Shown: in pieces, positions 15,337 to 33,466 of the stretch
How the letters are laid out: each line of letters starts with the position of its first letter
Numbering within the stretch: position 1 is the stretch's first letter
Source of the DNA: a virus
IMG/VR virus record: IMGVR_UViG_3300049489_000321
Coordinates: 32,001-96,000 of that record
DNA: 64,000 nucleotides
Reading direction: 5' to 3' (one strand)
Made by a program: the position numbers and the translations under genes
Notes under the pieces: model-generated
Database searches by the model: none
Told to the model about the DNA's origin: nothing
Seen by the model: the letters and a program-made list of their open reading frames with translations, nothing else

Positions 15337-15648
15337 ATGGACCTTAACCCTCTGGTAGACTTTTACGATTTACAAAGTAAGAAACATCACAAAATTTGGA
15401 AATTTAGTAATAAATACGGCATATCAGCTGTAAAACAACCTCCTGGCGAAGATGTTCGCGGAACAGACGGAACCACTTGGTCTGTGGCTGTCATTAAATT
15501 TTTTGGACCAGAGATCGATCAATTCGAGGTAGACTATAATAACTCTCTTTGTCGAGAACAAGGTGACTTATTCACGTTCGTACCAGACGAGCAACTCGAC
15601 GCTATCGTACTACTTGCTTCTAGGATGGAATGTCAAGATTTCAGCTAG
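15337..15648 (+). CDS. hypothetical phage protein
   Basis: F.N.YG.S.V...W.VAVI pattern. Confidence 0.65.
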   Translation: MDLNPLVDFYDLQSKKHHKIWKFSNKYGISAVKQPPGEDVRGTDGTTWSVAVIKFFGPEIDQFEVDYNNSLCREQGDLFTFVPDEQLDAIVLLASRMECQDFS

Positions 15649-17089: not shown

Positions 17090-17229
17090 GCGGCAACGTA
17101 GTTGCCGCATTCCTCCGAAGGAGTTAGCGTTAATTCAATGGATTTAAGCATAGGTCTATATTGAATCTGAGTACCTTATCGCTTATTGACGCCGCCTGCG
17201 GCGGCGAATACCCACCTTCGGTGGGTATT
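17090..17229. repeat. array of four perfect hairpins with C(GNA)G triloops; candidate origin or ncRNA
   Basis: Stems at 17090-17108, 17113-17123, 17190-17206 and 17207-17229. Confidence 0.8.
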
Positions 17230-17236
17230 TTTTATT
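17207..17236 (+). terminator. putative intrinsic terminator
   Basis: AATACCCACC-TTC-GGTGGGTATT followed by T-rich tract. Confidence 0.6.
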
Positions 17237-18933: not shown

Positions 18934-20526
18934 ATGCCTGAATTAACAAAAGGTTTTGGACCTCCTGCTACTGCTGGACAAAAACAGCGTCGTAGCATGT
19001 TAACAGCTGGTAACACGTCTACTACTGTTAATACCGGTCGCTCAGCTAGTCCAGGCGCTGCTCTGTGTCCTATGTGTGACCACCGTCACGGTCCTGGTAG
19101 TCAGTGTAGCTATCAAAAAGGTATTTTAGATCTATTTGATATTTCAAAAGCTGATCAACCAACTATGCCTGGTAAAAAAGGCGGTGGAGGTATACCTGGT
19201 CACACAGGAGGAAATAAGCACCACGGTCCTGACGGACGGTTCACTACGGCTGGTAAGGCTGTAAGCGTAACTCCTGCCAAGGGAAAACCAGCCGTAAAGG
19301 TTCCTAAACCAGATGAAGTTAACGCTGGCGGCGGATTCAGTGTTCCGAAGCCTAAAGATGACTTTAAAGTACCAAAACCAGGTGAAGTAAGTGCAGGTGG
19401 CGGTTACGAGGTTCCTAAACCAAATACCATGAATGCTGGTGGTGGATTTAAAGTTCCAAAACCAAAGGACGAGACGGTGGGCACTGTAGGTCCGTCTCCA
19501 AAAGCAGAGTCCAAGTTTGACCCAAATAAAACCGGTGCTGCGTCTCCTAAAGCGAAAGACGGTGGTCCGCTAAAAGGCGAAGAAGGCGGCAGCGGCGGCG
19601 TTACAGGCGACGGCGCTAAGACTAAACAAGGCGGCGAAGAAGACGAAGCCTATAACAAGGTGGTCGATGAAAACAAAAACAAGTTCCTTCCACCAGGATC
19701 TGAGAAACCAATAAAGCCAGATGACTATAGCAGAGCACACATTAATTTAACCCAAAAAATGGGAGATCGCGCTCGTTCTGCAGCTAAACAAGCTGGGCAC
19801 AGTACTTCTCAAGTAAACTTGGCTGCGTTTGAAGCAGACCAAGATGCTGGACATGCCGTTGGATTGGCCAAAGAAAGAGGGATTCCCGCACACGAAATAG
19901 AACAACATCTTCCTCAATTAATGGAAGAGGCAAAGCAGGCGCGTATAAATGCTGCTAATCAGCCTCCTACTGTAGAGGGGTTGTTTGACCAAGGTCAACA
20001 ACCCGTTTCTGGAACTATATTTCAATCTCCAACAAAACTAGACGCACATCCTGGTATTCCGCTAGACGGATCAACGCAGACAACTTCTGTCGGTACTCCT
20101 CAAGGAGTTGAGCACAACTTACGAGATCCAAGTAAGATGGGAACAGGAATGAGTTCACCTCCTGCTTCCGCAACGCCTCCAACACCTAACGGACCTCCGA
20201 CTCCAAAAGGTAAGACTCCACCAAAAGGAAAAAAAGGCGGGTCACTTGGTCTTCCTATTGCGCAAATGTATGGTGCTGGTAGTGCTATAGGAAGCGGATT
20301 GGCTGGTAGTCCTGGTGGTGGTGTAGCGCCTACGGCGTCTTTTGCTGCTCAAAGAGCACATCAATTGTTAAATCCTAATTTAAATTCAACTACCGGACCA
20401 GCTTTGGCTAATCCTGGTTCCGGCCCTGGTGGACGTGCTGCGTGGCAAAGTGCCAACGCTTCTCAAAAGCCAATTCATAATAATTTTGGTATTCGTAAAT
20501 CAGTTTTGGATGTTTTGGATGACTAA
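18934..20526 (+). CDS. Pro/Gly-rich disordered protein, putative internal head protein
   Basis: Low complexity, VPKP/AGGG repeats, LTKG/ISKA/IRKS sites. Confidence 0.65.
   Translation: MPELTKGFGPPATAGQKQRRSMLTAGNTSTTVNTGRSASPGAALCPMCDHRHGPGSQCSYQKGILDLFDISKADQPTMPGKKGGGGIPGHTGGNKHHGPDGRFTTAGKAVSVTPAKGKPAVKVPKPDEVNAGGGFSVPKPKDDFKVPKPGEVSAGGGYEVPKPNTMNAGGGFKVPKPKDETVGTVGPSPKAESKFDPNKTGAASPKAKDGGPLKGEEGGSGGVTGDGAKTKQGGEEDEAYNKVVDENKNKFLPPGSEKPIKPDDYSRAHINLTQKMGDRARSAAKQAGHSTSQVNLAAFEADQDAGHAVGLAKERGIPAHEIEQHLPQLMEEAKQARINAANQPPTVEGLFDQGQQPVSGTIFQSPTKLDAHPGIPLDGSTQTTSVGTPQGVEHNLRDPSKMGTGMSSPPASATPPTPNGPPTPKGKTPPKGKKGGSLGLPIAQMYGAGSAIGSGLAGSPGGGVAPTASFAAQRAHQLLNPNLNSTTGPALANPGSGPGGRAAWQSANASQKPIHNNFGIRKSVLDVLDD
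19294..19473 (+). repeat. intragenic peptide repeats (VPKP x5, AGGG[FY] x3)
   Basis: VKVPKPDEVNAGGGFSVPKPKDDFKVPKPGEVSAGGGYEVPKPNTMNAGGGFKVPKP. Confidence 0.85.
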
Positions 20527-21226
20527 CGAACCTATAGATTTATATAAAAGTAAGTCAAATAACAACAGAATTGTAGAAAACGCCATAATAACAGCGTTTG
20601 TTTATGAAGGCATAATTCCTAAATCAGTTCGTTATACTTTGCAAAATACTGAAATTGCTGGTATAGTTAAATCCACATCTTCTGATGTGTATTTTTTTAG
20701 TTACAACAGTGGTATAAATAATTTAGAGTTAAGTTTAGTGGATTCATTTTCGTATCGTAAAGCAACAGAACTTTTTTCAAAAAGCGAAGAAGGATTTGAT
20801 CTAGAATATGCGGAAGAAGAAGAGAAATCTGGTCAATCGGGCGGACAAAATGCTGGTGGGTTACCTGGTACAATTGACGAAGAAAGAAACGTAGCTGCAC
20901 AAAGACGATTAATAACAGAAGAACACCCTGGCGCTGCTGTAGGCATGACTCCTGATAGACCTGATCGCGGTCGTCAGTGGCATCAAGACACTGTTAAGTC
21001 TCTACAAGACCTATCAGAAAACATCAATAAATCTGTAACAAGTTATTTTAATATTGCTTCTCCTACGGAAAAACAATTCATGGTTGAAGTAATGGGGAGA
21101 TCCCCAGATGAGGTTGATTCAGGCACTATAAAGATGACTCCCTTACAAAAAGTTACATATCAAAAGTGGTTGGCTAAATCAGTTTATAAAGACTACACGT
21201 CACTAAATTCGTGGCGAAATCGTTAA
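20519..21226 (+). CDS. putative head-associated protein with many KS sites
   Basis: Probable start MTNEPIDLYKS; eight KS dipeptides. Confidence 0.6.
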   Translation: MTNEPIDLYKSKSNNNRIVENAIITAFVYEGIIPKSVRYTLQNTEIAGIVKSTSSDVYFFSYNSGINNLELSLVDSFSYRKATELFSKSEEGFDLEYAEEEEKSGQSGGQNAGGLPGTIDEERNVAAQRRLITEEHPGAAVGMTPDRPDRGRQWHQDTVKSLQDLSENINKSVTSYFNIASPTEKQFMVEVMGRSPDEVDSGTIKMTPLQKVTYQKWLAKSVYKDYTSLNSWRNR

Positions 21227-22977
21227 TGAAGAAAAAATACGGAAATAGCGTTAATTACGAGAAGATCGTTGAAGAAGTTGCTCGTATGTCTGTTGCTACG
21301 CAACAGATAATGCCTATAGTTAAGGAACAAATAGAAAAAGGATGGAAGCAAATTCCAAATGTTGACGCTAAACGCTCAACAAAGTCTTGGTTTTATGATC
21401 CTCTTTCAGTTCAATTTGCGCTAGGCTATAAAGACCGTAACTTCTCTTTAACTTTTGACATCTTAAAGAGAACAGTACAGCAGCTAGCGCTGCTAAACGC
21501 CATTATCAATCTTCGATGCGCGCAAGTAGCTGCCTTCAGTCAACCGTATAGAAGTACAAGAAGTCTTGGTTTTGTAATTAAACACAAAGATCCAGATCAT
21601 CCTACTACTCGTGCTGAGGTTGAGTTTATTAAGGAATTGGAAGCGTTTGTACTTAACTGCGGAAGATCTGAGAGAAACCCGTATTCTTTAGCAGATAGAG
21701 ACGACTTTGATACTTTTTTGCGTAAAATTGTTCGTGATTCTTTAAGCTATGATCAAATATGTTGTGAGGTAGTTCCTGATAAAATGGGAATTCCTTATGA
21801 ATTCGTAGCAGTAGATGCTTCTACAATACGGTTTTCAGCCGATCCTAGAATACTAGGTGCCAACATGGCTCCTTCACGCAACGGATTTAATCCAATAAAT
21901 CCTAAAATCAACCTAGGACCCGCCACAGCAGATCCATTTACTGGTGCTGTGGAATCAGAAGGAAAGCCAACCAAGTTCGTCCAGGTTGTTCAGGGGCAAA
22001 TAGAGAACGTATACAATGAAGACGAGTTATTTATAGGTATTAGAAATCCTAAAACAGATATCTTAACCGGAGTTTACGGGTACTCAGAAGTAGAACAGCT
22101 AATCAACACGATCACAGGCATGTTGTATGCCGAAGAGTACAATCGAAACTTCTTTAAGCAAGGAAGCTCTCCTCACGGTATTCTAAATTTTAAAGGTGAC
22201 GGCGTAACAGATGAGACTATTGAGGGTTTCCGTAGGTATTGGGCTGCTCACGTAACGGGTGTACAGAACAGTCACCAACTTCCTGTTCTAAACTCAGAGG
22301 GTCTAGAATTTATTGATTTCCACAAGACTAACACGGAGATGGAATTCAATAAATGGATTGAATACAACATTAAGACTATTTGCGGTGTGTTCCTTATAGA
22401 ACCAGAAGAGATCGGCTTCTCGCTATCTGGTGGTGTAAGTCAAACTCCTTTATTTGAGTCTTCTTCTGAATGGAAGCTAAAAGCTAGCCGTGATAGAGGT
22501 TTAAAGCCTCTTCTTAAGTTTGTATCTAAATTAATAAATAAGAACATTATTGACAAGATTGACGATCATTTTGCCTTAGAATTCGTAGGTCTAGATGAAA
22601 TGGACGAACAGTCCAAGCACAATATGATGATCGAACAGATTTCATCATATATGACGCTTAACGAAGCTCGTAGACAACTAGACATGCCTGATATAGAGGG
22701 CGGTGATATTCCGATGAATCCCACATACCTTCAGATGATGAAGATGAAGATGGACGCTGATCAGGCGAAACAACAAATGCAACAGGACCAAGCCGCGCAG
22801 GCACAACAAGCACAAGCACAGCCTCAACCGGGACAGGACCAGGCTCAGGATATGCAGGGACAACAGCCCAACGCCTTGCCAGGAAGCTTCCCAGATCAGC
22901 CGCAGCAACCGCCTAACTACAGTTCTACTTTTGGATTACCTGACTTTCCATTTTTTGACGATAACACGGGAGAATAG
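21226..22977 (+). CDS. portal protein
   Basis: IIN.R..QV..F, FLRKIVRDSL.YDQ, VDASTIR, RNP....GYGYSE.E-like, N.NFF.QG..P.GIL, S.D.GL.PLL, T.NEAR; Q-rich tail. Confidence 0.93.
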   Translation: MKKKYGNSVNYEKIVEEVARMSVATQQIMPIVKEQIEKGWKQIPNVDAKRSTKSWFYDPLSVQFALGYKDRNFSLTFDILKRTVQQLALLNAIINLRCAQVAAFSQPYRSTRSLGFVIKHKDPDHPTTRAEVEFIKELEAFVLNCGRSERNPYSLADRDDFDTFLRKIVRDSLSYDQICCEVVPDKMGIPYEFVAVDASTIRFSADPRILGANMAPSRNGFNPINPKINLGPATADPFTGAVESEGKPTKFVQVVQGQIENVYNEDELFIGIRNPKTDILTGVYGYSEVEQLINTITGMLYAEEYNRNFFKQGSSPHGILNFKGDGVTDETIEGFRRYWAAHVTGVQNSHQLPVLNSEGLEFIDFHKTNTEMEFNKWIEYNIKTICGVFLIEPEEIGFSLSGGVSQTPLFESSSEWKLKASRDRGLKPLLKFVSKLINKNIIDKIDDHFALEFVGLDEMDEQSKHNMMIEQISSYMTLNEARRQLDMPDIEGGDIPMNPTYLQMMKMKMDADQAKQQMQQDQAAQAQQAQAQPQPGQDQAQDMQGQQPNALPGSFPDQPQQPPNYSSTFGLPDFPFFDDNTGE

Positions 22978-22978
22978 T

Positions 22979-23494
22979 ATGAATAAAACTACAGAGATTC
23001 TTGAGGATTTTATAAAATCTTTAAGTACGTCATGTGACGATAGAGATGACGATTCTATACTTGATATAGACAAGGTTCCTGCTGCGGCATCTGAAATAGA
23101 TAAGACCGTAGTTGAGATTGAGGTAGAACCAGACGACGTACATTTGCGTGAAAAAGAAGAAAACGAAGAAGTAGAAAAAGCAATGACCGTTGGTTCTATT
23201 CCTACTCTCGGTAGTGCAACCAGGCGCAGTATATACGCGTCTGCTACCACTCCTGTTACTAGACAGTTTACAAAACTTACTCCACCAGAAGGTAGAGCAC
23301 CTCTTCTACCTGTTCCGTCAATGAAATATGCTCATGATGAATACTCAAGCTGTAATGCACACGGACTTACTTATAAGTCAACCAGTGAATGTCCACATTG
23401 TGCTATGTCTAAATCATACTCGTGTAAGTCGTGTGGTGGTGATTTGGTTAAACAGATAGGTGGCACCACTTCGTGCCAGAAGTGCGGAGCCTAG
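22979..23494 (+). CDS. putative head-associated protein with C-terminal Zn ribbons
   Basis: FIKS, VEKA, MSKS; CxxH/CxxC pairs. Confidence 0.6.
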   Translation: MNKTTEILEDFIKSLSTSCDDRDDDSILDIDKVPAAASEIDKTVVEIEVEPDDVHLREKEENEEVEKAMTVGSIPTLGSATRRSIYASATTPVTRQFTKLTPPEGRAPLLPVPSMKYAHDEYSSCNAHGLTYKSTSECPHCAMSKSYSCKSCGGDLVKQIGGTTSCQKCGA

Positions 23495-23495
23495 T

Positions 23496-23615
23496 ATGTC
23501 AAAAATTACAAAAAATCCTCGTCTTGTGTTAGCTACTCCCGCTAGTAAAGACGTTGTGGTGAAGTCAGTTAAAGATATTAAAAAGAGCATTCCTCTTTAC
23601 ATAAGGATTAAATAA
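23496..23615 (+). CDS. 39-aa basic peptide (not in ORF track)
   Basis: MSKITKNPRLVLATPASKDVVVKSVKDIKKSIPLYIRIK fills the gap between neighbours exactly. Confidence 0.55.
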   Translation: MSKITKNPRLVLATPASKDVVVKSVKDIKKSIPLYIRIK

Positions 23616-23617
23616 TT

Positions 23618-24082
23618 ATGGCCAACTACGGACCAAGAAAACCAATTCACATGCAGGATTCTGAGCTAAGTAAGTCATATAAGAATCCGTCTTTTGAATC
23701 TTTTAGAGACAACGAAATACATACATCCGACTACAAAGAGATGGAAGATCGTCCGTCAACACATGCTATGGCATCTATGCGACGGTATCCAAACGGCGAA
23801 CTAGAGTACCAATGGGCGGTTGCCGTTATTATGGACGCCTTACACAAAGCCGAAAGAGGTATGTTTTTAACTCCTCTAGAAGAGTCCATGATTAGCGTTG
23901 TTTTTCCGGAATACAAGTCTGACGCCGCTGACGCTGCACTAGCGCAGGTTCGTACTAAACTTTCACAGACGGAAAAAGAAAATCTTAAGATGATGGTTGA
24001 AGCACAACTAAAAGAAGAGTTTAATTATAACGCGGGGCGCGGCGGGGGCAACACTCCAGGCCGCACCAGAACACTTCCATAA
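23618..24082 (+). CDS. putative internal head protein
   Basis: N-term MANYGPRKP shared with next gene; LSKS site. Confidence 0.6.
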   Translation: MANYGPRKPIHMQDSELSKSYKNPSFESFRDNEIHTSDYKEMEDRPSTHAMASMRRYPNGELEYQWAVAVIMDALHKAERGMFLTPLEESMISVVFPEYKSDAADAALAQVRTKLSQTEKENLKMMVEAQLKEEFNYNAGRGGGNTPGRTRTLP

Positions 24083-24093
24083 ACGGAGAATTT

Positions 24094-25635
24094 ATGAGCA
24101 ATTACGGACCAAAGAAGCCTTTAAACTGGAGAGAACCTACGTTTGCCAAAGCGGTAAAACGCGTTACAACTCTTGAGGAAAAACTAGATATTCACTATCG
24201 TGACGGAACTCCACCTACTCGTGGAGGGGCTTCTTGGGGCGCTCCTAGTGGTCTTCGTCCGCCTATTCCAAGCAAGCTCAATCCACCGCTGATTATTAAG
24301 GCTGTTTTAGCCCCTGTCAAATACGGCGAAGAAGGCAAACCGCAGTTTGCCCGTAAACGCGGACCAGACGGTAAGTTCGTTGAAGCCGAGAGCACAGGAT
24401 CTGAATCAACTGCTCAAGACGACGCTCAACGTAATGAACGTGAAAGCAAGTTATCTGAACATCGTTCACACGACAAACTAGTCGATACTAAGTTACGTGC
24501 GCAAGCAGTATCTCGTGGTGAGTCTGTAAAGAATCCGAGTGTTAAAGATAACAAAGAAAAAGATGGGAAAGTAGATAAAGCATTAGGTTCACAAGTACCC
24601 GGTGTTTCGTCTGCGATGCCTATTGACACGGTAAACGATCCAGTTAGTAAGCAGATCGGTGTTACAAAAACCGGTAATCCTATTTTCGATGATCCACACC
24701 ACTCAGAACACACAGATTTCACACCAGATGACCACCAGGATGCTGCGCAAGCTAACGCTACAGGTGCCCAACAAGCTATGGCAGCCGGCGATCAAGCAGG
24801 AGCCATGCGTATGCAGAACAACGCCAGCATCCACGATTCTATGGCTAACGATACAAGCAATCCTTCTACTAGGTTCTTGAATCAATTAACGACAGACAAT
24901 GGGCAAGCTCCTTCCATGGATGATCTACCGCAGGACGACTTGTCTGCACTAATGGGCGGTACTCCTCCTACACAAGACCCGATGGCAGCGCAGACAGCTA
25001 CACAACCTCCTGGTATGCAGTCTACGCCACAGGACGGTTTATCTACATTAATGGGCGGGCCTACTGCTCCTATGCCGCCACCAAGTGCTGCTCCTACAGG
25101 AGTTACTCCACCTAACGTACCTCCTGTTGCTCATAATACTGCTGGCGCAGAGCCGGATTTTAGATCTGATGCGCTTAGTAATTTTGTAGACCCAGGCGCC
25201 GATAAAAACAAGCCAACAATGAACCCGCCCGCAGCTGGACCAGCTCCTGGCATGATTAATAGTCAAACTGGTACAGGAGTCGGCCCACAGACAGACTCAT
25301 CACAGTTTGCTGGAACGATGTCGCAGCCTCAATCACCTCAAGACGAAATGTCGCCTGTATCTCCCGACACGTCTGACACAACCGGTGCTGTTGACTTAGA
25401 TCAGCTGTTTGGTAATGGAGAAGACGGTGATAGCGACACGCCTCCAATGGGAGCACCTGGCGAAGAAAGCGACGACAGCGACTCTATGCCTAATGATCCT
25501 GCTGATGACAAACCGTCTTTTGGTGGTAAAGAACCTGCTTCTGATGATTCTGCTGACGAATCTGACGAAGAAGACAAGGATAAATTAAAAGTCGCAATGA
25601 ATAAAGCTCTGGTGGCGTTATCTAGACTAATCTAA
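24094..25635 (+). CDS. acidic Pro-rich disordered protein, putative internal head protein
   Basis: GGAG RBS; MSNYGPKKP; FAKA/IIKA/VDKA/MNKA; IGVTKTGNPIF motif. Confidence 0.65.
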   Translation: MSNYGPKKPLNWREPTFAKAVKRVTTLEEKLDIHYRDGTPPTRGGASWGAPSGLRPPIPSKLNPPLIIKAVLAPVKYGEEGKPQFARKRGPDGKFVEAESTGSESTAQDDAQRNERESKLSEHRSHDKLVDTKLRAQAVSRGESVKNPSVKDNKEKDGKVDKALGSQVPGVSSAMPIDTVNDPVSKQIGVTKTGNPIFDDPHHSEHTDFTPDDHQDAAQANATGAQQAMAAGDQAGAMRMQNNASIHDSMANDTSNPSTRFLNQLTTDNGQAPSMDDLPQDDLSALMGGTPPTQDPMAAQTATQPPGMQSTPQDGLSTLMGGPTAPMPPPSAAPTGVTPPNVPPVAHNTAGAEPDFRSDALSNFVDPGADKNKPTMNPPAAGPAPGMINSQTGTGVGPQTDSSQFAGTMSQPQSPQDEMSPVSPDTSDTTGAVDLDQLFGNGEDGDSDTPPMGAPGEESDDSDSMPNDPADDKPSFGGKEPASDDSADESDEEDKDKLKVAMNKALVALSRLI

Positions 25636-25648
25636 CCACTGTTGTTAA

Positions 25649-26365
25649 ATGGAAAAGGCTAGAAAATTGTCACGTCGTATGGAATTTCAAGGACTTAATA
25701 TTTCCATCGAAACTGACAAAGGTGAAATTAGAGAATGGTTTGATACTAATTCCGGACAGTCTGGTAAGACTACCATGGTATACCCTTACGGGTATATTAC
25801 TGGTCTTAAAGAAAAAGGCGAAGACGGTGACTGTTTAGATTGTTTCGTTGGTCCTAATAAAGACGCTGAAGTTGTTTACGTTGTTAGACAGTTAAAGAAA
25901 CCAGAGTTTAAAGAATTTGATGAAGAAAAAGTTATGTTTGGTTTTGAAACAGAAAAAGAAGCCAAACAAGCTTATCTAGAACACTATGATGATAAGAGAT
26001 TTTTTGGGTCGATTTATTCTATGCCAATAGATGAATTTAAGTCTGAATTAGTAAAGTCCATGGGAAATCAACTTCCTATGGACCAAATGAAGCCTCAATT
26101 TACGTACGACATTGATCAACTTCCTAACGTTGAACACTGGTTAAACAGCGTTGGATCTTTAAAAGAAAAAGATATTTTAGGTCTTTGTGCTGAAATATGG
26201 GGACCAGGTTATTCTTTTATAAAGCTAAGTAAAACACACATTATTGCTGAGTTACGCGGATTTTTAAGAGATCAGCAGGAATTGTTGTTATTAGCACAAC
26301 CAGATGTAGTAGAATCTTCTGTCGATCCAGTAGCGGTGCCACATGCAGAACAACCTAATAATTAA
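25649..26365 (+). CDS. inorganic pyrophosphatase-like (InPase, polyvalent-protein type) domain protein
   Basis: FQGL.ISIE..KG..R, YPYGYI, G.DGD.LD.FVGP, FDE.KVM.GF....A..AY. Confidence 0.85.
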   Translation: MEKARKLSRRMEFQGLNISIETDKGEIREWFDTNSGQSGKTTMVYPYGYITGLKEKGEDGDCLDCFVGPNKDAEVVYVVRQLKKPEFKEFDEEKVMFGFETEKEAKQAYLEHYDDKRFFGSIYSMPIDEFKSELVKSMGNQLPMDQMKPQFTYDIDQLPNVEHWLNSVGSLKEKDILGLCAEIWGPGYSFIKLSKTHIIAELRGFLRDQQELLLLAQPDVVESSVDPVAVPHAEQPNN

Positions 26366-29171
26366 AAGCGAAGAGTCTGCGGCTCCTACCGGTCCTGGTA
26401 GCGGATCTTCTGCACCCGGAGGCGGCCAACAGCGCGCGGGACATAAGTACATAAAACGCACACCAAAGCCAGGTGGCGGATGGGACTATGAATACGCTCC
26501 TGAGCCTGGTCAACACCACGGAATACAAAACACGGCTAACGATGAACACACGCTGTCTATACCGTCTTCCATTAGCGAAGAAACACATAAGCAAGCTTCC
26601 GGTGGTGACAAAAACGCATTAAAACAAGTATATCAACAGTCGCGACAAGCGGCTTCTGATCTTCCTTCTACAAAAGGAACTCACAGAGGCAAACATCCTG
26701 TTACTGGTTCTCCTGTAGAATACGGCGTAATTGCTGACAAAGCCTCTTCAACTGGTCATAGAATTAAGGTATTTGACTTAGACGAAAAAGGCAACCGCAT
26801 AAAAGGTGAGGACGGTAAGCCTAAAAAAGCGTCCTACATAGCCACAGACTGGGACAAAATACATAAGTGGCATAAGATGGCTCCTTTAACTGAGGAGATT
26901 AAAGGACCGGACGGAACTACGCACTACATGATCATGCCTGTAAGCGATGAGTTTGATGAAGAAACCAATAAACCTAAGCCATCTAAAGACGGTCTCAACT
27001 GGCGTCTAAAAGTAATGGATCATGCTGCTGAGCGCGGTCTGTTGGATAAGCGTGGAGAGATTCGAGTTACAGACAAAGACAGTGCTAAAGCACGTCTTAA
27101 AGCTTTACAGAATGGGCATGTCGCGATGCAGCAAAATGCTGGTAAGCAGTCCGCAACAGAACACATCGGCTCTGGAAAGAGCGCCGCAGAAGTTCTAGAA
27201 GGCGGACACTTGCCTGTGAAGGTAGGCACTACTGGTCGTGCTAAGAACTTGTTTAAGGACGACAAGGAAAAGGACGCGTTCATTCATAAACTAGCTACGG
27301 AAAAAGGTGACATGATCCGTGATTTTGCTGAAAAATACGGACAACCTTTGGACGGTGACTTAGAAAACGTAACCGGTGATAAACATTCAAATCTTTATAA
27401 TGCACTAGATATCGTCGCCAGAAACTATCGTCCTGGTGATGGTAAAAATCTTGATGGTCATATTGTTAGTACTATTAACAACATGAATACACACGGACAC
27501 TTTACTAGAGACGCGTCTGGTAAAAGAGTACGTCACCAAGGCATACGTAGTCAAATGTCCATGCAAGGTGACGAAAAGACCGCACAAGCTGCTGATGCTG
27601 CTGCCGCAGGCGTTCTCAAAAAAGAAGAGGGCGGCGGTACTAATGCTGCTCAACAAACAGAAGATGATATGTTAGATAGCATTGACCAACGCAATGCTAT
27701 GATGAATAAGTACAAAGATACACAAACACATAAATTACGTACGTTCGCGTCCCAGTATGCAGACAACAAGGACGTACAAGATTTAATTAATGTACTAAAT
27801 CAAAAGCTTAAAGCAAGTTCTGATCCTTATGAATACCACAAAGATATTTCTAATGGTCTTAGTAATATGGGTCTTTCTTCCCGTATTTCTGACATATTGG
27901 TGCATCCAGACGAGCTAATGGATGAGATGGGTAAATCATTTTCTCACAATAATCCTGTACTATTAGATTTTCACAAGTCTTACGCCGTGTCTTACGCCGT
28001 GTCTAGTATTGTGATGGAAGAAGATTTGGTAAAGGCTACCACTGATCGGTACAGCCATAAAGATGGCTCGTTATATCCTCGTTATTACTACAAAGACGGT
28101 AGAGGAAATTACGTTCGTTACACAAACGCTCCTGACGGAACAGATGATGCTTCGAAATTCTTTGGTGAAGCACAAAGATACTCAGGAGAACCTGACTATG
28201 GTACTAATCCAGAATTCTTTACACCAGATGGTAGAAAGCTAAGTCGTGTTCCTGCTCAAAATGCTCCTGTTGAGTGGAATCGTAGTTACCACCCATCAGA
28301 CACCAAGAATCTTTGGGCTGGTAGATGGGTAAACCCTGTTACCGGTGCGCACGAATACACTTATGTAGAATCTGATTTATTTAATAATGACGTTTTGAAC
28401 GTCCATCGCAATAACGTGGTTGTTGACGCTAGACTTAATGTTTTGCGTAAATACGTAGTATCGTTAATGCAGTCACAGAACCTTAAGGATAAGATCACGG
28501 GTTTAATGCTCGCGTTACTAGACCAAGGTCGTTTTAGAATTCGTGAATTAATATCTTTACGCGTCGGTGATGTACGTAATGAGGGAGACATCTATACTAT
28601 AGGACGACGTAAATGTATGATAGACAACACCATTCAGAACATACTTACTGTCATTACGTCCGGTCGTCAACCACAAGACATGTTGTTCATGGTCCCCAGA
28701 GTTGGTAAAGACGGTGGAGTAGACTATTCAAAGATGCGTCGTCTTGGTCCGCACTACGTTGTTAATATTATTGAAGAAATGGGAATTCCACTACAAGCAC
28801 TAGCTACCTACCACGCTTCCCAAACATATAGCGTAGAGATTCAACGCATGTTTTCTCAACACAATACTTCGTATAATGCCGCACACACGTTCGCATTGCT
28901 TGAAGTTGCTAGTGAGATGGGGCATAATCTAGATAACGTTGAAGACTTCCAACAGGCGATCGAAGTGATCGGACAGACTGTCGTTGACCCAATAGTCGTG
29001 CGTACTATCAAGCAAAACGTTACAGACATGGGAATTGGTGGTCAAGATTACCTGAAAAGACCTGTTCATCAAGCTGTTTACCATGTTGTCTCAAATCTGG
29101 ACGGATTAACGCAAGACGAGCGATTGTTTAGTCAATGGATCCACAGCGCGCCTATCCATAATTATTTATAA
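26343..29171 (+). CDS. multidomain putative virion protein with C-terminal degenerate topoisomerase IB-like domain
   Basis: HKYIKR motif; LALLDQGRFRI, SLRVGDV, LAT.HAS, VASEMGH, VVDP align with TopIB motifs. Confidence 0.65.
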   Translation: MQNNLIIKSEESAAPTGPGSGSSAPGGGQQRAGHKYIKRTPKPGGGWDYEYAPEPGQHHGIQNTANDEHTLSIPSSISEETHKQASGGDKNALKQVYQQSRQAASDLPSTKGTHRGKHPVTGSPVEYGVIADKASSTGHRIKVFDLDEKGNRIKGEDGKPKKASYIATDWDKIHKWHKMAPLTEEIKGPDGTTHYMIMPVSDEFDEETNKPKPSKDGLNWRLKVMDHAAERGLLDKRGEIRVTDKDSAKARLKALQNGHVAMQQNAGKQSATEHIGSGKSAAEVLEGGHLPVKVGTTGRAKNLFKDDKEKDAFIHKLATEKGDMIRDFAEKYGQPLDGDLENVTGDKHSNLYNALDIVARNYRPGDGKNLDGHIVSTINNMNTHGHFTRDASGKRVRHQGIRSQMSMQGDEKTAQAADAAAAGVLKKEEGGGTNAAQQTEDDMLDSIDQRNAMMNKYKDTQTHKLRTFASQYADNKDVQDLINVLNQKLKASSDPYEYHKDISNGLSNMGLSSRISDILVHPDELMDEMGKSFSHNNPVLLDFHKSYAVSYAVSSIVMEEDLVKATTDRYSHKDGSLYPRYYYKDGRGNYVRYTNAPDGTDDASKFFGEAQRYSGEPDYGTNPEFFTPDGRKLSRVPAQNAPVEWNRSYHPSDTKNLWAGRWVNPVTGAHEYTYVESDLFNNDVLNVHRNNVVVDARLNVLRKYVVSLMQSQNLKDKITGLMLALLDQGRFRIRELISLRVGDVRNEGDIYTIGRRKCMIDNTIQNILTVITSGRQPQDMLFMVPRVGKDGGVDYSKMRRLGPHYVVNIIEEMGIPLQALATYHASQTYSVEIQRMFSQHNTSYNAAHTFALLEVASEMGHNLDNVEDFQQAIEVIGQTVVDPIVVRTIKQNVTDMGIGGQDYLKRPVHQAVYHVVSNLDGLTQDERLFSQWIHSAPIHNYL

Positions 29172-29377
29172 TGTTTTTACCAAAAATTACGTGTATTTGC
29201 GGAGATATAGTGGTTAAGTCTACTATTGATGGCACATCAAAAATAAGATCTAAAATATTGTTGCTTAAAAACAACACTGCTTATGCGGTGTGCAAAGGAT
29301 GCGGAACAGAAGTTAAAGTACCTATAAAGGTGAGTAGCGACGCAGTTAGCCCACCTTTGTTTATTAAAAGTAAATAA
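29171..29377 (+). CDS. small Zn-ribbon protein
   Basis: CICG...VCKGCG.EV. Confidence 0.65.
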   Translation: MFLPKITCICGDIVVKSTIDGTSKIRSKILLLKNNTAYAVCKGCGTEVKVPIKVSSDAVSPPLFIKSK

Positions 29378-29404
29378 AACGTAACATTTTTTTAGTTTTT
29401 GTTG

Positions 29405-29433
29405 TTGACTTCACAATTTACCCAAGGTATTAT
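29405..29433 (+). promoter_or_regulatory. sigma70-type promoter of capsid operon
   Basis: TTGACT-17-TATTAT. Confidence 0.65.
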
Positions 29434-29474
29434 ACATAAATACTGGTTTTTAAGCCAGAATGCGCTCCAACTAG

Positions 29475-29523
29475 AGGGAGGCTAAGTACCTTAACTGGTA
29501 GTTAGACCTCCCTATTTTATTTC
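29475..29523 (+). terminator. terminator-like leader hairpin before protease gene
   Basis: AGGGAGG...CCTCCCT long stem followed by ATTTTATTTC. Confidence 0.45.
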
Positions 29524-29526
29524 TAA

Positions 29527-30264
29527 ATGAATCAAGATAAAGACATTTTTAATTTTTGGGTTCCAGCTGAGATGCTTAAAGCGTCTGCCGAATCTGACGG
29601 AACTCGTAGAATTAAAGGTATTGCTAGCACAGAAAGCAGAGACCTTCAAAACGAAGTAGTTGATTTAAAAGGAATTTCTTTAGATTATTTTAGATCACAC
29701 GGCGTATTCAACGATGATCACGGACAGAAAACCGCCGACATTGTAGGAGAACCTACTGAAGTAAAGATTACCAAAGACGGTTTATACGTAGAAGGCATTG
29801 TCTACAAAGGAAAAGAAAGTTCTGACCGTATTTGGGAGCACATGAACAGCCTTGAACAGTCTGGTGCTAAGCGTAAGCTTGGTTTTTCTATTGAAGGCAA
29901 GGTTGTTGAGCGTCAAGGAAACAAAATTAAGAAGTGCTGGTTAAAGAATATTGCAATTACACCGCATCCTGTAAACACAAGCACCTGGGCAGAGATTGCT
30001 AAGTCTTTCGAAGGCGCTAAATGGGTAGACGGTTCTGAAGAAGAGGACAAAGCTATGACAACCGCGTCAGCCGGCGCTCTCTTACCAGAGTCATTAGAAG
30101 GCAGTAAAAAGCCTCAAATATATAAAAGTTTTAGTGAAGTACCTGACGGTGTGGAACTGTCCTTTGAAGATTGCGTACGGACGCTGCAATTGGAGAAGGG
30201 GTGGTCTAAATCAACAGCTGAGGCTGTGATGGACTGTGTTTTCATACAAAAAGGGCTTAAGTAA
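29527..30264 (+). CDS. prohead protease (HK97/herpes-like fold)
   Basis: IKGIASTESRDLQNEVV, NDDH, GFSIEG, IAITPHPVN..TW. Confidence 0.92.
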   Translation: MNQDKDIFNFWVPAEMLKASAESDGTRRIKGIASTESRDLQNEVVDLKGISLDYFRSHGVFNDDHGQKTADIVGEPTEVKITKDGLYVEGIVYKGKESSDRIWEHMNSLEQSGAKRKLGFSIEGKVVERQGNKIKKCWLKNIAITPHPVNTSTWAEIAKSFEGAKWVDGSEEEDKAMTTASAGALLPESLEGSKKPQIYKSFSEVPDGVELSFEDCVRTLQLEKGWSKSTAEAVMDCVFIQKGLK

Positions 30265-30306
30265 GGGCCTGTACAAGAGGCGAGTTCAAATAATCAAGGA
30301 GGAATC

Positions 30307-31272
30307 ATGAGCAATAAAATTAGTAAAGATGCCGTGCAGAAGAGTATCGCCAAGCTACAGGATTTAGCTAAGAGCCAGCTGCACCACACTCCGTCTAACT
30401 CGGAGCCTGGCGTTTGGGCCGGTACTTCGGCTGAGGCGCAGGATGAACACGAAGATGATATCAAGAATGGAACCGATTACGCTGGCGTGCGTAAGTCACT
30501 TGCGAATAAAGTTCGTAAGTCACTAGCGCTAACCCCTGCGGAAGTCGCCATTGCGGAAGGTCGTAACCCACTTCCACTAATCGGAGCGAAGCTAGCGAAG
30601 TCCGAATCGCTAACTTCAGCCGAACAGTGGGCGATGAAGAGTGGTTTTGCCGGCATGAACAAGTCAGCCGGGCAGCCAACCGACGCCGTTAGCGCTCCTG
30701 GCGAAGACGACAGCGCGGAAGCTGTCCCAGAGAGTCACGCTGGTGAAAAGGAAGACGAAGTTATGGCGGATGCCAAAAAGTCACTTCGCTCTGCTATTGC
30801 TGCTAGCGACGAACTATCGAAGGGTCTGGAGCTTTCTCCATTCCTAGCCGAACTAGCCGGTGCGCTAACTGCGGCTCTAGATGGCGTTGAAGCGCGCATC
30901 ACCAAGTCATTCCAGGCGCAGCTAGAAGGCGTTAAAGCCGACCTAGCCAAAGGCCAGAACGATCAGACCGAATTCAACAAGTCACTAGCTGACGCTGTTG
31001 TCGGTATTGGTAAACTAACTCAGGCTCAACAGGAAGTTGTTGCGGCGGCTGCTTCGGCTCCTGCTCGCGGTCCAAAGAGCACTATCGTTGCTAAGTCGTT
31101 CGCTGGTCAACAGCCGTCCGACATGACGAAATCACAAATCGTTGAAGTAATGGGTGACCTTGTTAAATCAAACAAGATCCCTGCTATGGAACTAATTAAA
31201 TACGAATCGACGGGTCATATGTCAGAGAGTGCTCGCCAGGCTGTCCAGGCGCACTTAGCTGGCACCCGCTAA
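30307..31272 (+). CDS. capsid scaffolding-like protein
   Basis: Between protease and MCP; AGGAGG RBS; helical; 14 KS dipeptides. Confidence 0.75.
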   Translation: MSNKISKDAVQKSIAKLQDLAKSQLHHTPSNSEPGVWAGTSAEAQDEHEDDIKNGTDYAGVRKSLANKVRKSLALTPAEVAIAEGRNPLPLIGAKLAKSESLTSAEQWAMKSGFAGMNKSAGQPTDAVSAPGEDDSAEAVPESHAGEKEDEVMADAKKSLRSAIAASDELSKGLELSPFLAELAGALTAALDGVEARITKSFQAQLEGVKADLAKGQNDQTEFNKSLADAVVGIGKLTQAQQEVVAAAASAPARGPKSTIVAKSFAGQQPSDMTKSQIVEVMGDLVKSNKIPAMELIKYESTGHMSESARQAVQAHLAGTR

Positions 31273-31291
31273 ACCGGAAAAGGAGAAATAT

Positions 31292-32734
31292 ATGAACGGA
31301 GTAAGTCTAGCTCATTACAACAGCCAGCCGGTTAGCGGCTTTGGTACTGCCCCTGCTGCTGATGTACAAGAATTGTCAAAGGCCCTAGAGGCCGGCTACC
31401 AAGTGTCGTCACAGACAGGTGGTGGCGCTCTACGCGTCGAATCTCTAGAGGGTTCTCTAAAGGTTGTCTCGTACACTTCTCACCACATCAAGATGTGGAA
31501 GAAGATCCACAAGAGCCCAGCGTACAGCACGGTTGAAGAGTACAACCAGCTAACTGCGTACGGCTCAAACGCTAACGCCTTCCTACGTGAAGGCGAACTA
31601 GCGCCAACCCAGGACTCAACTTACGCGCGTAGAACCGCGTTCGTTAAGTACATCGGCGTTACCCGCGAGGTAAGTCACCCGATGACCGTTGTCCACCCTG
31701 CTCACGGCGATGTTATCGCTCTGGAAAACCAGAATGGTATTCTCTGGCTGCTACAGCAAGTCGAGAACTCACTATTCCACGGTGATTCAAGCCTAGCGTT
31801 TAGCGGTGAATCAGAGCAGTGGGATGGTCTCGATGCTCTAATTGATCCAACCTCGTACCTCGACCTCGAAGGCGACCCAATGCAGGAAGCCGATATTGAA
31901 GAGGCTACTAACCTACTAGTTGAACAGTTTGCGTACCCCACCGACCTCTGGCTCGGTACCCGCAATGCTTCTGACCTAGTTAAGACTTTCTACCCACGTG
32001 AGCGCGTATCGCTCCCAGCTCCTGAAAATGGTCGCGTTGGTATGAACGTTAGCTCGGTGATGACGCAGGCCGGCGTGATGGAACTCAACCCATCCGTCTT
32101 CCTACGTGAACTACCCTCACCTCCTTCGGCGGCTACTAGTTCTAATGCCCCAGCGCAGCCAGCGTCAATTGCTGGTGTTGCGGCGGCTACTGGTACGGGT
32201 AACTTCACTAAGGGTGCCCCATCCGGTACTGTTTACTACGGCTATGCGGTTACTTCATGTAACCGTTTCGGTGAATCTGCGCCTCGCTTCATTGCAGCTA
32301 ACAACGTCGAAATGACGCAAGCTAACGCGGAGGCTCTAGAGTCTATTGCTCTTACGATCACCAACGCGGCTTCAGTTGGAACTTTCCCACCTGAGTACTT
32401 CCGTATATACCGTACTAACGCTCTGCCGACCGACACACTAACCTCAGACGTTGCCGACTATAGTCTTGTGATGCAGGTTCCTGCTGATTCACAGGCTAAC
32501 AGCGGCGTCACTGCGGCTTCTGACGTTAACTTCCTACTACCATTTACCAGCATTGCGTACATGGGTGAAATGACTGAACAGGTTCTAACCTTCCGTCAGT
32601 TACTACCCCTAATGCGTATGGATCTAGCGGTTACTTCACCAAGCTACCGTTGGATGATTCTAATGTACGGAACTCCAATTCTGTTCGCGAATCGCAAGTG
32701 GCTACGTATTATCAACGTAGGTCGCCTAGAATAG
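31292..32734 (+). CDS. major capsid protein
   Basis: LSKAL.AG, GGALRVESLE, STVEEYNQ, E.E.....DSTY.R, E...F.GD, EQWDGL. Confidence 0.95.
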   Translation: MNGVSLAHYNSQPVSGFGTAPAADVQELSKALEAGYQVSSQTGGGALRVESLEGSLKVVSYTSHHIKMWKKIHKSPAYSTVEEYNQLTAYGSNANAFLREGELAPTQDSTYARRTAFVKYIGVTREVSHPMTVVHPAHGDVIALENQNGILWLLQQVENSLFHGDSSLAFSGESEQWDGLDALIDPTSYLDLEGDPMQEADIEEATNLLVEQFAYPTDLWLGTRNASDLVKTFYPRERVSLPAPENGRVGMNVSSVMTQAGVMELNPSVFLRELPSPPSAATSSNAPAQPASIAGVAAATGTGNFTKGAPSGTVYYGYAVTSCNRFGESAPRFIAANNVEMTQANAEALESIALTITNAASVGTFPPEYFRIYRTNALPTDTLTSDVADYSLVMQVPADSQANSGVTAASDVNFLLPFTSIAYMGEMTEQVLTFRQLLPLMRMDLAVTSPSYRWMILMYGTPILFANRKWLRIINVGRLE

Positions 32735-32760
32735 TCTAAAAGACTAGCTTAGACTAAATA

Positions 32761-32796
32761 GCCTCCTAGAGCGGCCAACTGCTCTAGGGGGTTTTT
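32761..32796 (+). terminator. intrinsic terminator after MCP
   Basis: GCCTCCTAGAGCGG-CCAA-CTGCTCTAGGGGGT plus T run. Confidence 0.85.
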
Positions 32797-32908: not shown

Positions 32909-33466
32909 TTGTCAATTGGAAAGACTGCTCAAGAGGTTTTACGTATTTTAGCAAATAATGCTATGAAAGAACCTTCTGGCAAGAAACTGAAAACTAGGAG
33001 ACCCAAAATGTTAAAAGCTTTTTCACGAAGACTAGCAAATAAAACTGTTGTTATTAAGAATACAGTGTTTGCATTTGATAAAAACGGAAATACTGTAGTT
33101 AAAGACACGGGAAATAGTGAAGAAGATTTTAAAACCCTCATTCGCGTATACAACGCAGTAGACGTAAGTGAAAGAAATTACAAAGAAGCTAAAGAAGTTG
33201 AAAAGACCGCCGAAAAACCAAAGATACTTGAAGCAGTGTCGATTCAACCACCAGAACCTGTTGCGGTGATCACAGTAGAGGAGTCCGTAGTTGAGCAAGA
33301 AACCTCCGATTCCAACAAACAAGAGGACACCTATACCGTTGAACAAGCGACAGGGACTGAAGTCGAGCCAAAGGAATTTGTCGAAACCGAATCAACCGCA
33401 GGAGACACTGTTCCTGCAAAGAAAAAGAGAAGATCTAAGAAAAAGTCTACAGAGACAAAGGAGTAA
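32909..33466 (+). CDS. hypothetical protein (alternative start at 33008)
   Basis: AGGAG precedes both TTG 32909 and ATG 33008; acidic then basic tail. Confidence 0.65.
   Translation: MSIGKTAQEVLRILANNAMKEPSGKKLKTRRPKMLKAFSRRLANKTVVIKNTVFAFDKNGNTVVKDTGNSEEDFKTLIRVYNAVDVSERNYKEAKEVEKTAEKPKILEAVSIQPPEPVAVITVEESVVEQETSDSNKQEDTYTVEQATGTEVEPKEFVETESTAGDTVPAKKKRRSKKKSTETKE

Follow-up and report, generated by a model that had tools for sequence, protein, structure and literature searches.

The internal proteins IPI-III and Alt of phage T4 carry a capsid-targeting sequence and are processed by the gp21 prohead protease; they stay in the head and are injected. Capsid precursors of A511/K-type phages are cut at a Lys-Ser bond. 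The A511 cleavage was not found in the literature searched, and as a precedent here it would draw on our alignment. In the head proteolysis of jumbo phages (SPN3US gp245, phiKZ gp175, 201phi2-1), many head proteins bear N-terminal propeptides ending in one motif; the protease cleaves off its own C-terminal portion, the portal is also processed, and internal proteins are ejected (PMC10052503). For a propeptide scheme of this kind, SPN3US and T4 are precedents (PMC10052503). For the HK97-type protease of phi12, Lys or Arg at P1 was reported (PMC8569155). InPase and RelA/SpoT are phage-type domains of polyvalent proteins, which are predicted to be packaged in the virion and injected (Iyer et al. 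2017, PMC5512222).

We analyzed a 64,000-nucleotide stretch (the window) of the 147.5-kb genome of an uncultured SPO1-like (Herelleviridae-related) myophage, in which a late head-assembly operon is rich in the motif h-x-K↓S/A/G ([FILMV]xK[SAG]; the arrow marks the predicted cut). As in T4, a short N-terminal peptide common to unrelated proteins ends in a protease consensus, and scaffold or core proteins have many cut sites, predicted here from sequence. In contrast to T4, where P1 is Glu (L/I-x-E), P1 is Lys, the protease is of the SPO1/K/A511 type, and the cargo genes form one block between portal and protease. Jumbo phages likewise have N-terminal propeptides ending in one motif, at which cleavage is only predicted here; however, their motif has Glu at P1, their genomes are about 240 kb in size, their substrate genes are scattered instead of clustered, and the putative cargo of our phage includes InPase and a dead TopIB domain, with no virion RNA polymerase. 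Classical Herelleviridae (K/G1, SP8, and the A511/P100-like LP-039) have homologous portal, protease (30-40%), scaffold, and MCP (about 45% identity), with h-x-K↓S/A at the N-termini of MCP and portal, after the protease domain, and repeatedly in scaffolds. Similarity to polyvalent proteins lies in the presence of InPase (and of RelA/SpoT in the related locus L011) next to virion genes including the portal, as well as in module fusion and splitting, which vary among relatives. Unlike polyvalent proteins, the modules are mostly separate genes, and processing is predicted to be carried out by the prohead protease; no MuF, MPTase, or other embedded peptidase was detected with Pfam in any protein of the block.

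Organization of the head-assembly operon

The operon lies between two strong terminator-like hairpins, the first of which is its upstream boundary, and no comparable terminator was found between 17206..17230 and 32760. In G1, SP8, and the P100-like LP-039, the portal, protease, scaffold, and MCP genes are adjacent to one another, whereas here a 6.5-kb insert of seven extra genes separates the portal from the protease, and two further substrate-like genes precede the portal. Extra genes between portal and protease, with products that bear the conserved site, were also present in >100 metagenomic relatives. The insert encodes two unrelated tagged proteins, an InPase domain, and a TopIB-fold domain without the catalytic Tyr. 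This portal-protease insert of ~6.5 kb is the lineage-specific part of the locus. The motif itself is not lineage-specific: it occurs in the scaffold, MCP, protease, and portal of G1, SP8, and the P100-like phage, is family-wide in Herelleviridae head genes, and is not special to the cargo of the block. The features are as follows (window positions):

17206..17230, + strand, strong terminator-like hairpin of the intrinsic type, 11-bp stem followed by a T run
18934..20526, + strand, 530-aa G/P/K-rich, mostly low-complexity protein with Cys cluster CPMCDHRH..C at the N-terminus
20519..21226, + strand, ~235-aa multi-site protein 5' of the portal, six h-x-K↓S sites
21211..22977 (likely start 21226), + strand, portal (phrog_12 at 1e-54; PF04860)
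22931..23494 (likely start 22979), + strand, small protein of 171 aa with N-proximal FIK↓S
23460..23615, + strand, 51-aa ORF with two sites, VVK↓S and IKK↓S
23618..24082, + strand, 154-aa protein with tag MANYGPRKP, ELSK↓S (K19), and a small helical domain
24094..25635, + strand, 513-aa, largely disordered P/Q/D-rich protein with tag MSNYGPKKPLNW, then TFAK↓A (K19)
25649..26365, + strand, 238-aa InPase-domain protein (InPase at residues 9-132, PF18823 at E 1.5e-35)
26343..29171, + strand, 942-aa multidomain protein with propeptide MQNNLIIK↓S (K8) and a variable middle part
29171..29377, + strand, 68-aa four-Cys zinc-ribbon-like protein with conserved VVK↓S (K16)
29527..30264, + strand, prohead (head-maturation) serine protease (phrog_1028 at E 3.8e-56)
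30307..31272, + strand, scaffolding protein (phrog_15087) with 13 h-x-K↓[SG] sites
31292..32734, + strand, MCP (phrog_752 at 7e-101) with propeptide site ELSK↓A (K30)
32760..32793, + strand, strong terminator-like hairpin, 15-bp stem, closing the operon
32909..33466, + strand, 185-aa protein 3' of MCP with KMLK↓A (K36)

Enrichment and position of the motif

Expected motif counts were calculated from shuffles of each protein with its composition kept. The scaffold contained 13 motifs vs. 2.2 expected (p 8e-7), ORF 20429-21226 as called contained 7 vs. 1.1, and the other 11 block proteins together contained 34 vs. 14.9 (p 1.5e-5), whereas tail and structural proteins (24 vs. 29.8) and the rest of the genome (102 vs. 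103.9) did not exceed expectation. Motif variants used as controls (nine patterns with R or E at P1, in permuted order, or with residues other than S, A, and G at P1') showed no enrichment. The sequence-only reading had chosen both motif and block from the same data, which is offset by replication on other loci; the recurrence of the motif that it noticed was far beyond chance, with flat controls. All tetrapeptides it listed were present in the respective genes, and its 14 KS dipeptides in the scaffold were confirmed, with 13 occurrences of the full motif; over-long ORF calls account for VAKS at the start of the portal and for LLKS in ORF 20429. Its view of the whole block as protease precursors was too broad, as the 18934, portal, InPase, and 26343 proteins were approximately at expectation overall; in these, the signal lies in where the sites are placed.

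An N-proximal site (P1 at residues 4-35) was found in 11/13 block proteins vs. 24/249 elsewhere (Fisher p 3e-9), and a C-proximal site in 8/13 vs. 26/249. The frequent placement of the motif at termini and domain boundaries, noticed earlier, was reproduced, with boundary sites kept in orthologues. An unbiased check was made on seven scaffolds: KS ranked first of 400 dipeptides (82 vs. 20.8 expected, z 15), and P3 was V, L, I, F, or M in 104 of 130 K[SGA] occurrences. For N-termini and domain boundaries, analysis in silico supports the motif as a functional site that is conserved.

Canonical head proteins

The N-proximal portal site EQIEK↓G (K43) was kept in L009, L012, and L013, and the portals of G1, SP8, and LP-039 have sites within about the first 45 residues. 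The scaffolds of relatives contained 13-17 sites vs. about 2 expected; those of G1 and SP8 had 7 and 10, respectively. The MCP site ELSK↓A aligned with DVVK↓S in G1, ALNK↓A in SP8, and DALK↓S in LP-039.

The protease is homologous to the enzymes of phages K, SPO1, and A511; in tblastn, 761 phage records with a prohead or head-maturation protease annotation matched it at 30-40% identity. Among 11 aligned proteases, the His of (D/E)H and the Ser of (F/L)S(I/V)(E/Q)G were invariant, and we take them to be the catalytic residues. No Pfam protease family (Peptidase_S78 or related) was matched even at E up to 10; PHROG and BLAST homology together with the conserved His and Ser suggest an HK97/S78-like clan. 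Its sites are the N-proximal MLK↓A, IAK↓S (K159) after the domain, and then IYK↓S (K200). The K↓S following the catalytic domain was invariant in 11/11 proteases, including those of G1, SP8, and LP-039. Downstream of MCP, the site of the 185-aa protein was kept in L005 and shifted in L006; this protein is possibly a further substrate, although the case is weak.

Genes preceding the portal and small genes of the insert

In the 18934 protein, a conserved ISK↓A (K72, nt 19141-19152) follows the Cys cluster, and the L009 orthologue (629 aa) has MVK↓A at the equivalent place. This protein belonged to no PHROG or Pfam family, with a weak LPD22 hint at E 0.058. The ORF call of the next gene begins at 20429 and the database form at 20510, and the true start is likely 20510 or 20519. 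Its product had no family or Atlas match; GIxK↓S, FxK↓S, INK↓S, and WLAK↓S were kept in eight homologues, and it is probably a second scaffold or core protein cut to pieces.

Within the insert, the 22931 protein ends in a zinc-ribbon-like CxxC..CxxC, and its L009 orthologue has N-terminal ILK↓AFNK↓A. ORFs of 49-51 aa occurred in relatives at the position equivalent to that of the 51-aa ORF (L012 9850, L013 9852). The gene of the 68-aa protein was located directly 5' of the protease in L004, L007, L008, and L013; its VVK↓S may be functional or structural.

Tagged proteins

The 154-aa and 513-aa families, otherwise unrelated, have in common the tag M-[SA]-N-[YHF]-G-P-[KR]-[KR]-P-[LI], followed directly by the site at K18-K24 in all orthologues seen. 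This tag resembles the T4 capsid-targeting sequence; unlike in T4, it is confined to these two genes within the genome, and the other cargo families have different, unrelated propeptides. The motif h-x-K↓[SAG] was retained by 113/114 members of the 154-aa family, in most of them at K18-K20 (background 0.23 per 100 aa). Residues 1-50 of the 154-aa protein were disordered in the AF2 model, and no fold match was found for the protein. Further sites of the 513-aa protein are the conserved NPPLIIK↓A (K69) and MNK↓A at the C-terminus; all orthologues seen had the N-site, and 4/4 had the second one.

InPase-domain and TopIB-fold proteins

Of the enzyme-like domains suggested earlier, InPase was recovered by its Pfam match, with acidic motifs DGDxLDxFVG and DExKV kept; for TopIB the fold was upheld and the enzyme was not. 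In the InPase protein, LVK↓S (K136) follows the domain and precedes a conserved C-terminal domain of about 100 aa. This boundary site was retained by 5/5 orthologues, and the fused L012 protein has it at K151. PHROGs with an InPase domain carry annotations as minor head or virion structural proteins.

The 942-aa protein has boundary sites FHK↓S and LVK↓A (K564), after which the TopIB-fold domain begins (nt 28035-29171). It was compared with 7 homologues. Across its family, 35/38 clusters (<=50% identity) have retained a site in the 30 aa preceding the TopIB-like domain and 31/38 an N-proximal site; propeptide, site, and domain are all present in stand-alone forms. Residues about 570-900 have the fold of type IB topoisomerases (Deinococcus 2f4q, variola 2h7f, human Top1): Foldseek matched PDB 2f4q at E 1.3e-6 (TMt 0.51), as well as 2h7f and 1ej9, with a model pLDDT of only 63, and hmmsearch against PDB matched 6z01 at E 6e-5. 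LLDxGRxR(I/V) with the first Arg and the His in MGHN are also shared. Unlike these enzymes, the domain is the C-terminal module of a head-operon protein and lacks the catalytic Tyr. In a motif-level comparison, Y-[ILV]-D-P reads T-V-V-D-P here, and roughly 45 nearest clusters have V, A, M, L, or I at the Tyr position; distant matches and relatives of 1400-1800 aa keep the Tyr of Y-[LIV]-D-P. An active type IB topoisomerase was therefore rejected. No discussion of a TopIB-fold module was found in the searched text of PMC5512222. In the window, separate genes encode InPase and the TopIB-like module; in L012, both belong to a single 1120-aa chain. In L011, they lie in a 642-aa protein, and RelA_SpoT is in the same locus.

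Conservation in relatives

The same pattern was observed in nine related metagenomic loci (56/81 vs. 2/29, p 2.6e-9). For 13/25 occurrences of the motif, at least 2/3 of orthologues retained the site, vs. 14/94 for the nine control patterns, and it persisted despite varying flanks and propeptide length. HNH genes inserted in the block of related loci had no site. The N-proximal site was absent from the InPase of L007 and L008 and from the protease of L005 and L008, where P3 is Ala or Cys. LTKG and IRKS (the other two sites of the 18934 protein), MEKA of the InPase protein, and LHKA of the 154-aa protein (23618) were not conserved. The folded part of MCP (IHK↓S, FTK↓G) and zinc-ribbon-like motifs also contained conserved copies, and therefore sequence alone defines no cut.

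Alternative explanations

A purely compositional or structural origin, in which the pattern is a by-product of Lys/Ser-rich amphipathic helices with no specific function, might be suggested by the helical, K/S/A-rich character of the scaffold and several block proteins. It is very unlikely, indeed close to negligible, given the 2.3- to 6.6-fold excess over shuffles that keep composition, the flat permuted and R/E-substituted motifs, the first rank of KS among 400 dipeptides, and the highly non-random position and conservation. We also consider it improbable that h-x-K-[SAG] is a binding or targeting motif of uncut proteins, e.g., for docking on the scaffold, the portal, or the inner surface of MCP. 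Any short linear motif could be conserved in disordered N-termini, and the copies in folded MCP domains and zinc-ribbon-like motifs are unlikely to be cut; however, the motif marks the MCP propeptide boundary in alignment with classical SPO1-like phages, is found directly after the catalytic domain of all 11 proteases, a usual place for self-cleavage, has 13-17 copies in scaffolds, which need to be removed, and marks domain boundaries in proteins that are single chains in some relatives and separate ones in others.

A narrower set of substrates, i.e., scaffold, MCP, protease, and perhaps portal, is doubtful, although it keeps some weight. The insert genes would then encode assembly factors, regulators, or early proteins outside the capsid, with motifs derived from shared ancestry or meant for another protease. 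In keeping with this, the virion location of the insert proteins is itself deduced, none of them except the InPase domain matches a PHROG virion family, and the large ones have no overall motif enrichment. Against it, 8/9 non-canonical block proteins have an N-proximal site vs. about 10% background, and in families of >100 members the site hardly changes while the residues around it do; it is missing from the HNH genes inserted at the locus. Furthermore, the genes are co-transcribed from portal to protease with no terminator between them, and the InPase-bearing PHROGs carry minor head or virion structural annotations.

Proposed processing and delivery of head proteins

We regard as fairly probable a cargo system similar to T4 internal proteins and to polyvalent proteins, with the prohead protease as its processing enzyme. 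From the observed enrichment, position, and conservation of the motif, the domain identities, and the synteny, we infer cleavage, packaging, and ejection. The protease most likely cuts after Lys in h-x-K↓S/A/G, with Ser favoured at P1' and often Leu at P2'. The scaffold (13 sites) and the 235-aa protein (6 sites) would be cut to small peptides and expelled, and trimming would take place after K30 in MCP, after K159 in the protease itself, and probably after K43 in the portal. The insert products each begin with a short putative propeptide of low conservation that ends in the site, and more sites lie exactly at domain boundaries. Because the prohead protease acts inside the procapsid, the insert proteins would be co-assembled into the prohead and trimmed there. 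The trimmed proteins, which include InPase and an inactivated domain of TopIB fold resembling a DNA clamp, probably stay as internal head proteins and may be delivered to the host together with the DNA. In function, the locus would be equivalent to a polyvalent protein split into genes, in which the prohead protease may take the role proposed for the embedded metallopeptidase of classical polyvalent proteins.

Identity of the phage and organization of the head operon

The window covers bases 32001-96000 of a single 147.5-kb contig. The major capsid protein (MCP) shares about 45% identity with its counterparts in SPO1-like phages of Bacillus and has matches in 779 Herelleviridae-type records. 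In a collection of 50,697 phage records, the late head operon (18934-32734; hereafter the block) had no DNA-level match by megablast, and its 942-aa protein (gene at 26343) had none by tblastn. Scanning viral_contigs with one protein, the prohead protease, as query yielded no confirmed relative. From the MCP identity and the lack of DNA matches in the phage records, this is an uncultured phage distantly related to the SPO1/K/A511 group. The following features of the block were assigned with PHROG/Pfam:

21211-22977, portal
25649-26365, stand-alone InPase domain (PF18823, E 1.5e-35)
29527-30264, prohead protease
30307-31272, scaffold
31292-32734, MCP

Terminator-like hairpins, both strong, flank the block at 17206-17230 and 32760-32793, with none between them. 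The sole sizeable intergenic gap in the block, 150 nt, precedes the protease gene and contains a near-consensus sigma-70-like promoter (TTGACT-17-TATTAT, 29405-29433). For three genes, the longest ORF probably gives the wrong start. The portal likely begins at 21226 (MKKKYGNS, as in the related locus L009), the 187-aa ORF called at 22931 likely at 22979, directly after the portal stop, and the 265-aa ORF called at 20429 likely at 20510 or 20519. The gene at 18198-18926 was left out of the system, as L009 does not keep its IMK↓A site (arrow, predicted cut).

Enrichment of the predicted cleavage motif

The sequence-only reading had proposed that genes around the portal encode head cargo tagged with hydrophobic-x-K[S/A/G] protease sites, and all the tetrapeptides it listed are present. 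Overall, 262 ORFs were called genome-wide, and every protein was compared with its own shuffles. The block proved to be enriched, and the tail/structural proteins and the remaining genome were at or below expectation.

Occurrences of [FILMV]xK[SAG] (P1 = Lys), observed and expected from shuffles
Scaffold: 13 observed, 2.2 expected
ORF 20429-21226: 7 observed, 1.1 expected
Remaining block proteins: 34 observed, 14.9 expected (p 1.5e-5)
Tail/structural proteins: 24 observed, 29.8 expected
Rest of genome: 102 observed, 103.9 expected

Control patterns (R or E at P1, non-SAG residues at P1', permuted order) showed no enrichment in the shuffle test. Small proteins and protein termini account for most of the excess; an N-proximal site (P1 at residues 4-35) was present in 11 of the 13 block proteins vs. 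24 of the 249 others (p 3e-9). In an unbiased test on seven scaffolds, KS ranked first among 400 dipeptides (82 observed, 20.8 expected). At scaffold K[SGA] occurrences, P3 was V, L, I, F, or M in 80%, P1' followed the order S > G > A, and P2' was often L. Two candidates, MEK↓A in the InPase and VAK↓S in the portal, both at the gene start, were dropped, as they lie at position 1 or in an over-long ORF call. Leaving aside the scaffold and 20429, the block proteins were strongly depleted relative to shuffles in the arginine counterpart [FILMV]xR[SAG] (1 observed, 8.9 expected), which was at expectation elsewhere in the genome.

Lineage-specific genes and related loci

The window lineage carries seven extra genes (6.5 kb) between portal and protease as well as two substrate-like genes before the portal. 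Among these extra genes, PHROG and Pfam found a family for the InPase alone; even down to E 5-10, nothing usable was obtained for 18934, 20519, 22931, 23618, 24094, and 29171, for which weak LPD22 (E 0.058) and zinc-finger-like matches were the sole hints. The 235-aa protein (20519) had no usable match in the ESM Atlas, and the model of the 154-aa protein (23618) had none below E 0.27 in a BFVD fold search. Homology of the 235-aa protein to ORF040 ("virion structural protein") of the K-like phage G1 was unsupported (BLASTP E 0.097).

Relatives were recovered from a protein collection via homologues of the 942-aa, 235-aa, and 154-aa proteins. They comprise nine more metagenomic loci for which DNA is available (L004-L009 and L011-L013) and a tenth, a 161.8-kb ENA contig, as a gene list only. 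Where the loci extend far enough, gene order is kept: a G/P-rich protein of about 600 aa, a multi-site protein of about 240 aa, the portal, small proteins, a protein of about 155 aa, a protein of about 520-770 aa, the InPase, a protein of about 1000 aa, a zinc-ribbon-like protein of about 67 aa, and then protease, scaffold, and MCP. The 154-aa protein occurs in at least 160 clusters, on contigs of 110-170 kb. The portals of L011 (3831-6815) and of the ENA contig are about 1000 aa long and contain an intein (Intein_splicing and LAGLIDADG Pfam matches). HNH endonuclease genes are inserted at differing block positions in L011 and L013.

Conservation of the sites

Across the nine loci, an N-proximal site was found in 56 of 81 block genes vs. 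2 of 29 genes outside (p 2.6e-9), and the HNH homing-endonuclease genes inserted in the block were without it. Thirteen of 25 window motif occurrences persist in two-thirds or more of the orthologues, vs. 14 of 94 for nine control patterns. Several sites of the sequence-only reading lack conservation. Propeptide length and sequence vary while the site stays, P1 in the 942-aa family being K8, K9, K15, K18, K19, or K23. In the 154-aa family, the site occurs in 113 of 114 full-length members, with P1 mostly at K18-K20 and P2 free; past position 40, motif density is down to 0.23 per 100 residues. Residues 1-50 of the 154-aa protein are predicted to be disordered (AF2).

Sites also mark domain boundaries. 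Searching 1.84 billion proteins with a profile of the 942-aa protein's C-terminal domain retrieved 120 representatives. In 35 of the 38 close clusters of the family, a site lies at most 30 residues upstream of this domain, and an N-proximal site is present in 31 as well. Where the domain, which is TopIB-like, stands alone, the architecture is propeptide, site, domain. InPase proteins carry a site directly after the InPase domain in 5/5 cases. In L012, the InPase and the TopIB-like protein form one 1120-aa chain (12623-15985) with sites at K151 and K703/719/728. Some orthologues deviate, with Ala or Cys at P3, and some InPase proteins have no N-site. The motif is also conserved within the folded MCP and within zinc-ribbon-like motifs, so context must matter.

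The otherwise unrelated 154-aa and 513-aa (24094) proteins share the start M-[AS]-N-Y-G-P-[RK]-K-P, with a site at K19 in both. Their orthologues retain M-S-N-[YHF]-G..[KR]-P-L, and within the genome the tag is limited to these two genes. It parallels the capsid-targeting sequence of T4. The 530-aa (18934) and 513-aa families have in common G-x-D-G-[KR]-F, which follows a conserved K↓A site at a distance of about 25 residues; the copies HGPDGRF (19225-19245) and RGPDGKF (24361-24381) are kept in orthologues (L004, L006, L008, L009).

Domains of the putative cargo

The InPase protein retains its acidic motifs. Iyer et al. assign this InPase clade to the polyvalent proteins of phages, for which packaging and injection are predicted (PMC5512222). 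For the 942-aa protein, the AF2 model (pLDDT 63, moderate) matches type IB topoisomerases (2f4q, E 1e-6, TMt 0.51; also variola and human Top1), and the C-terminal-domain profile matches TopI 6z01 (E 6e-5). The active-site Y-[LIV]-D-P is replaced by V-V-D-P in the window and by V/A/M/L/I-x-D-P in about 45 nearest clusters. Given this fold and the loss of the Tyr, the domain represents an inactivated TopIB, which plausibly acts as a DNA clamp. The catalytic Tyr is kept in distant matches and in relatives of 1400-1800 aa, and the Tyr-less form is a derived state within the head-operon clade. The long relatives, which may represent active TopIB modules of giant polyvalent proteins, include P0062, P0070, P0076, and P0087, with YIDP or YVDP.

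In L011, additional genes with N-proximal sites are present, and a RelA/SpoT gene (20133-20483) closes the cargo block. The locus is variable in the manner of an effector bay. The InPase of L011 lies inside a 642-aa protein (13285-15213).

The motif in classical Herelleviridae

In G1, SP8 (SPO1-like), and LP-039 (P100/A511-like), the portal, protease, scaffold, and MCP genes are adjacent. Their scaffolds contain 7, 10, and 3 motifs, respectively (about 1.3 expected), and the MCP N-termini DVVK↓SF (G1), ALNK↓AL (SP8), and DALK↓SF (LP-039) align with ELSK↓AL of the window. K↓S directly past the catalytic domain is invariant in 11/11 aligned proteases, as are the His and Ser; we infer the clan assignment of the protease. 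Since the scaffold, MCP, and protease of these phages share the motif, it is a family-level property, not special to the window phage, and most simply would represent the cleavage specificity of the SPO1/K/A511-type prohead protease. Lys-Ser cleavage reportedly occurs in A511; literature searches found no published Herelleviridae cleavage motif or A511 Lys-Ser cut. A positively charged P1 was reported for the HK97-type protease of phi12 (PMC8569155).

The protease segment after the conserved K↓S (29995-30127, residues ~157-200) resembles the mature MCP N-terminus (31373-31480, residues ~28-63): IAK↓SFEGAKW..AGALLPESLEGS vs. LSK↓ALEAGYQ..GGALRVESLEGS in the window, and FMK↓SFLTGHGTSPDTQVDAGALR vs. 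VVK↓SFQTGYGITPDTQIDAGALR in G1. The MCP N-terminus also scores against protease family phrog_1028 (PHROG, E 1e-4). This MCP-like segment may be a capsid-docking mimic.

Proposed mechanism and significance

As in other phages, the protease would be active solely within the procapsid. It would cut up the scaffold and the 235-aa protein, whose peptides would leave, and would trim the MCP, its own chain, and probably also the portal. From the insert proteins it would strip propeptides and split domains, the products remaining as internal head proteins; ejection of this cargo is a conjecture. Iyer et al. argued that unpacking of polyvalent proteins needs an embedded metallopeptidase (PMC5512222). 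No such domain was found in the block proteins, and prohead-protease sites are located at the points where unpacking would be required. The system is related to known prohead-protease and capsid-targeting cargo systems, as a variant of these. The interpretation as motif-tagged head cargo is largely supported, if unproven, by statistics and comparative data.

A broader reading, which we consider rather unlikely, is that the interval from portal to protease serves this widespread clade of uncultured phages as a cargo bay with exchangeable contents. Gaining a short N-terminal propeptide ending in hydrophobic-x-K↓S/A/G would then suffice for loading any protein into the prohead, and the protein would be freed by the prohead protease and injected; the M-S-N-Y-G-P-K-K-P tag would be one portable propeptide version. 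The prohead protease would have replaced the peptidase that polyvalent proteins carry within them. The cargo would comprise counter-defence or DNA-protection factors, with the InPase directed against nucleotide-based signalling and the Tyr-less TopIB clamp riding on the entering DNA.

If the predicted sites are real, they would give one simple rule, open to testing, for where the prohead protease cleaves (hydrophobic-x-Lys↓Ser/Ala/Gly), valid throughout the SPO1/K/A511 group, which takes in therapeutic Staphylococcus and Listeria phages. Trypsin also cleaves after Lys, and the predicted cuts would therefore be invisible to routine virion proteomics. The T4-like targeting tag could then serve for loading foreign proteins into capsids. 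Real sites would also bring to light, in a large clade of uncultured phages, a cargo locus that is compact and variable, and would tie prohead-protease processing to polyvalent effector domains (InPase, RelA/SpoT) and an inactivated TopIB, suggesting a second route for phage delivery and unpacking of effector proteins.
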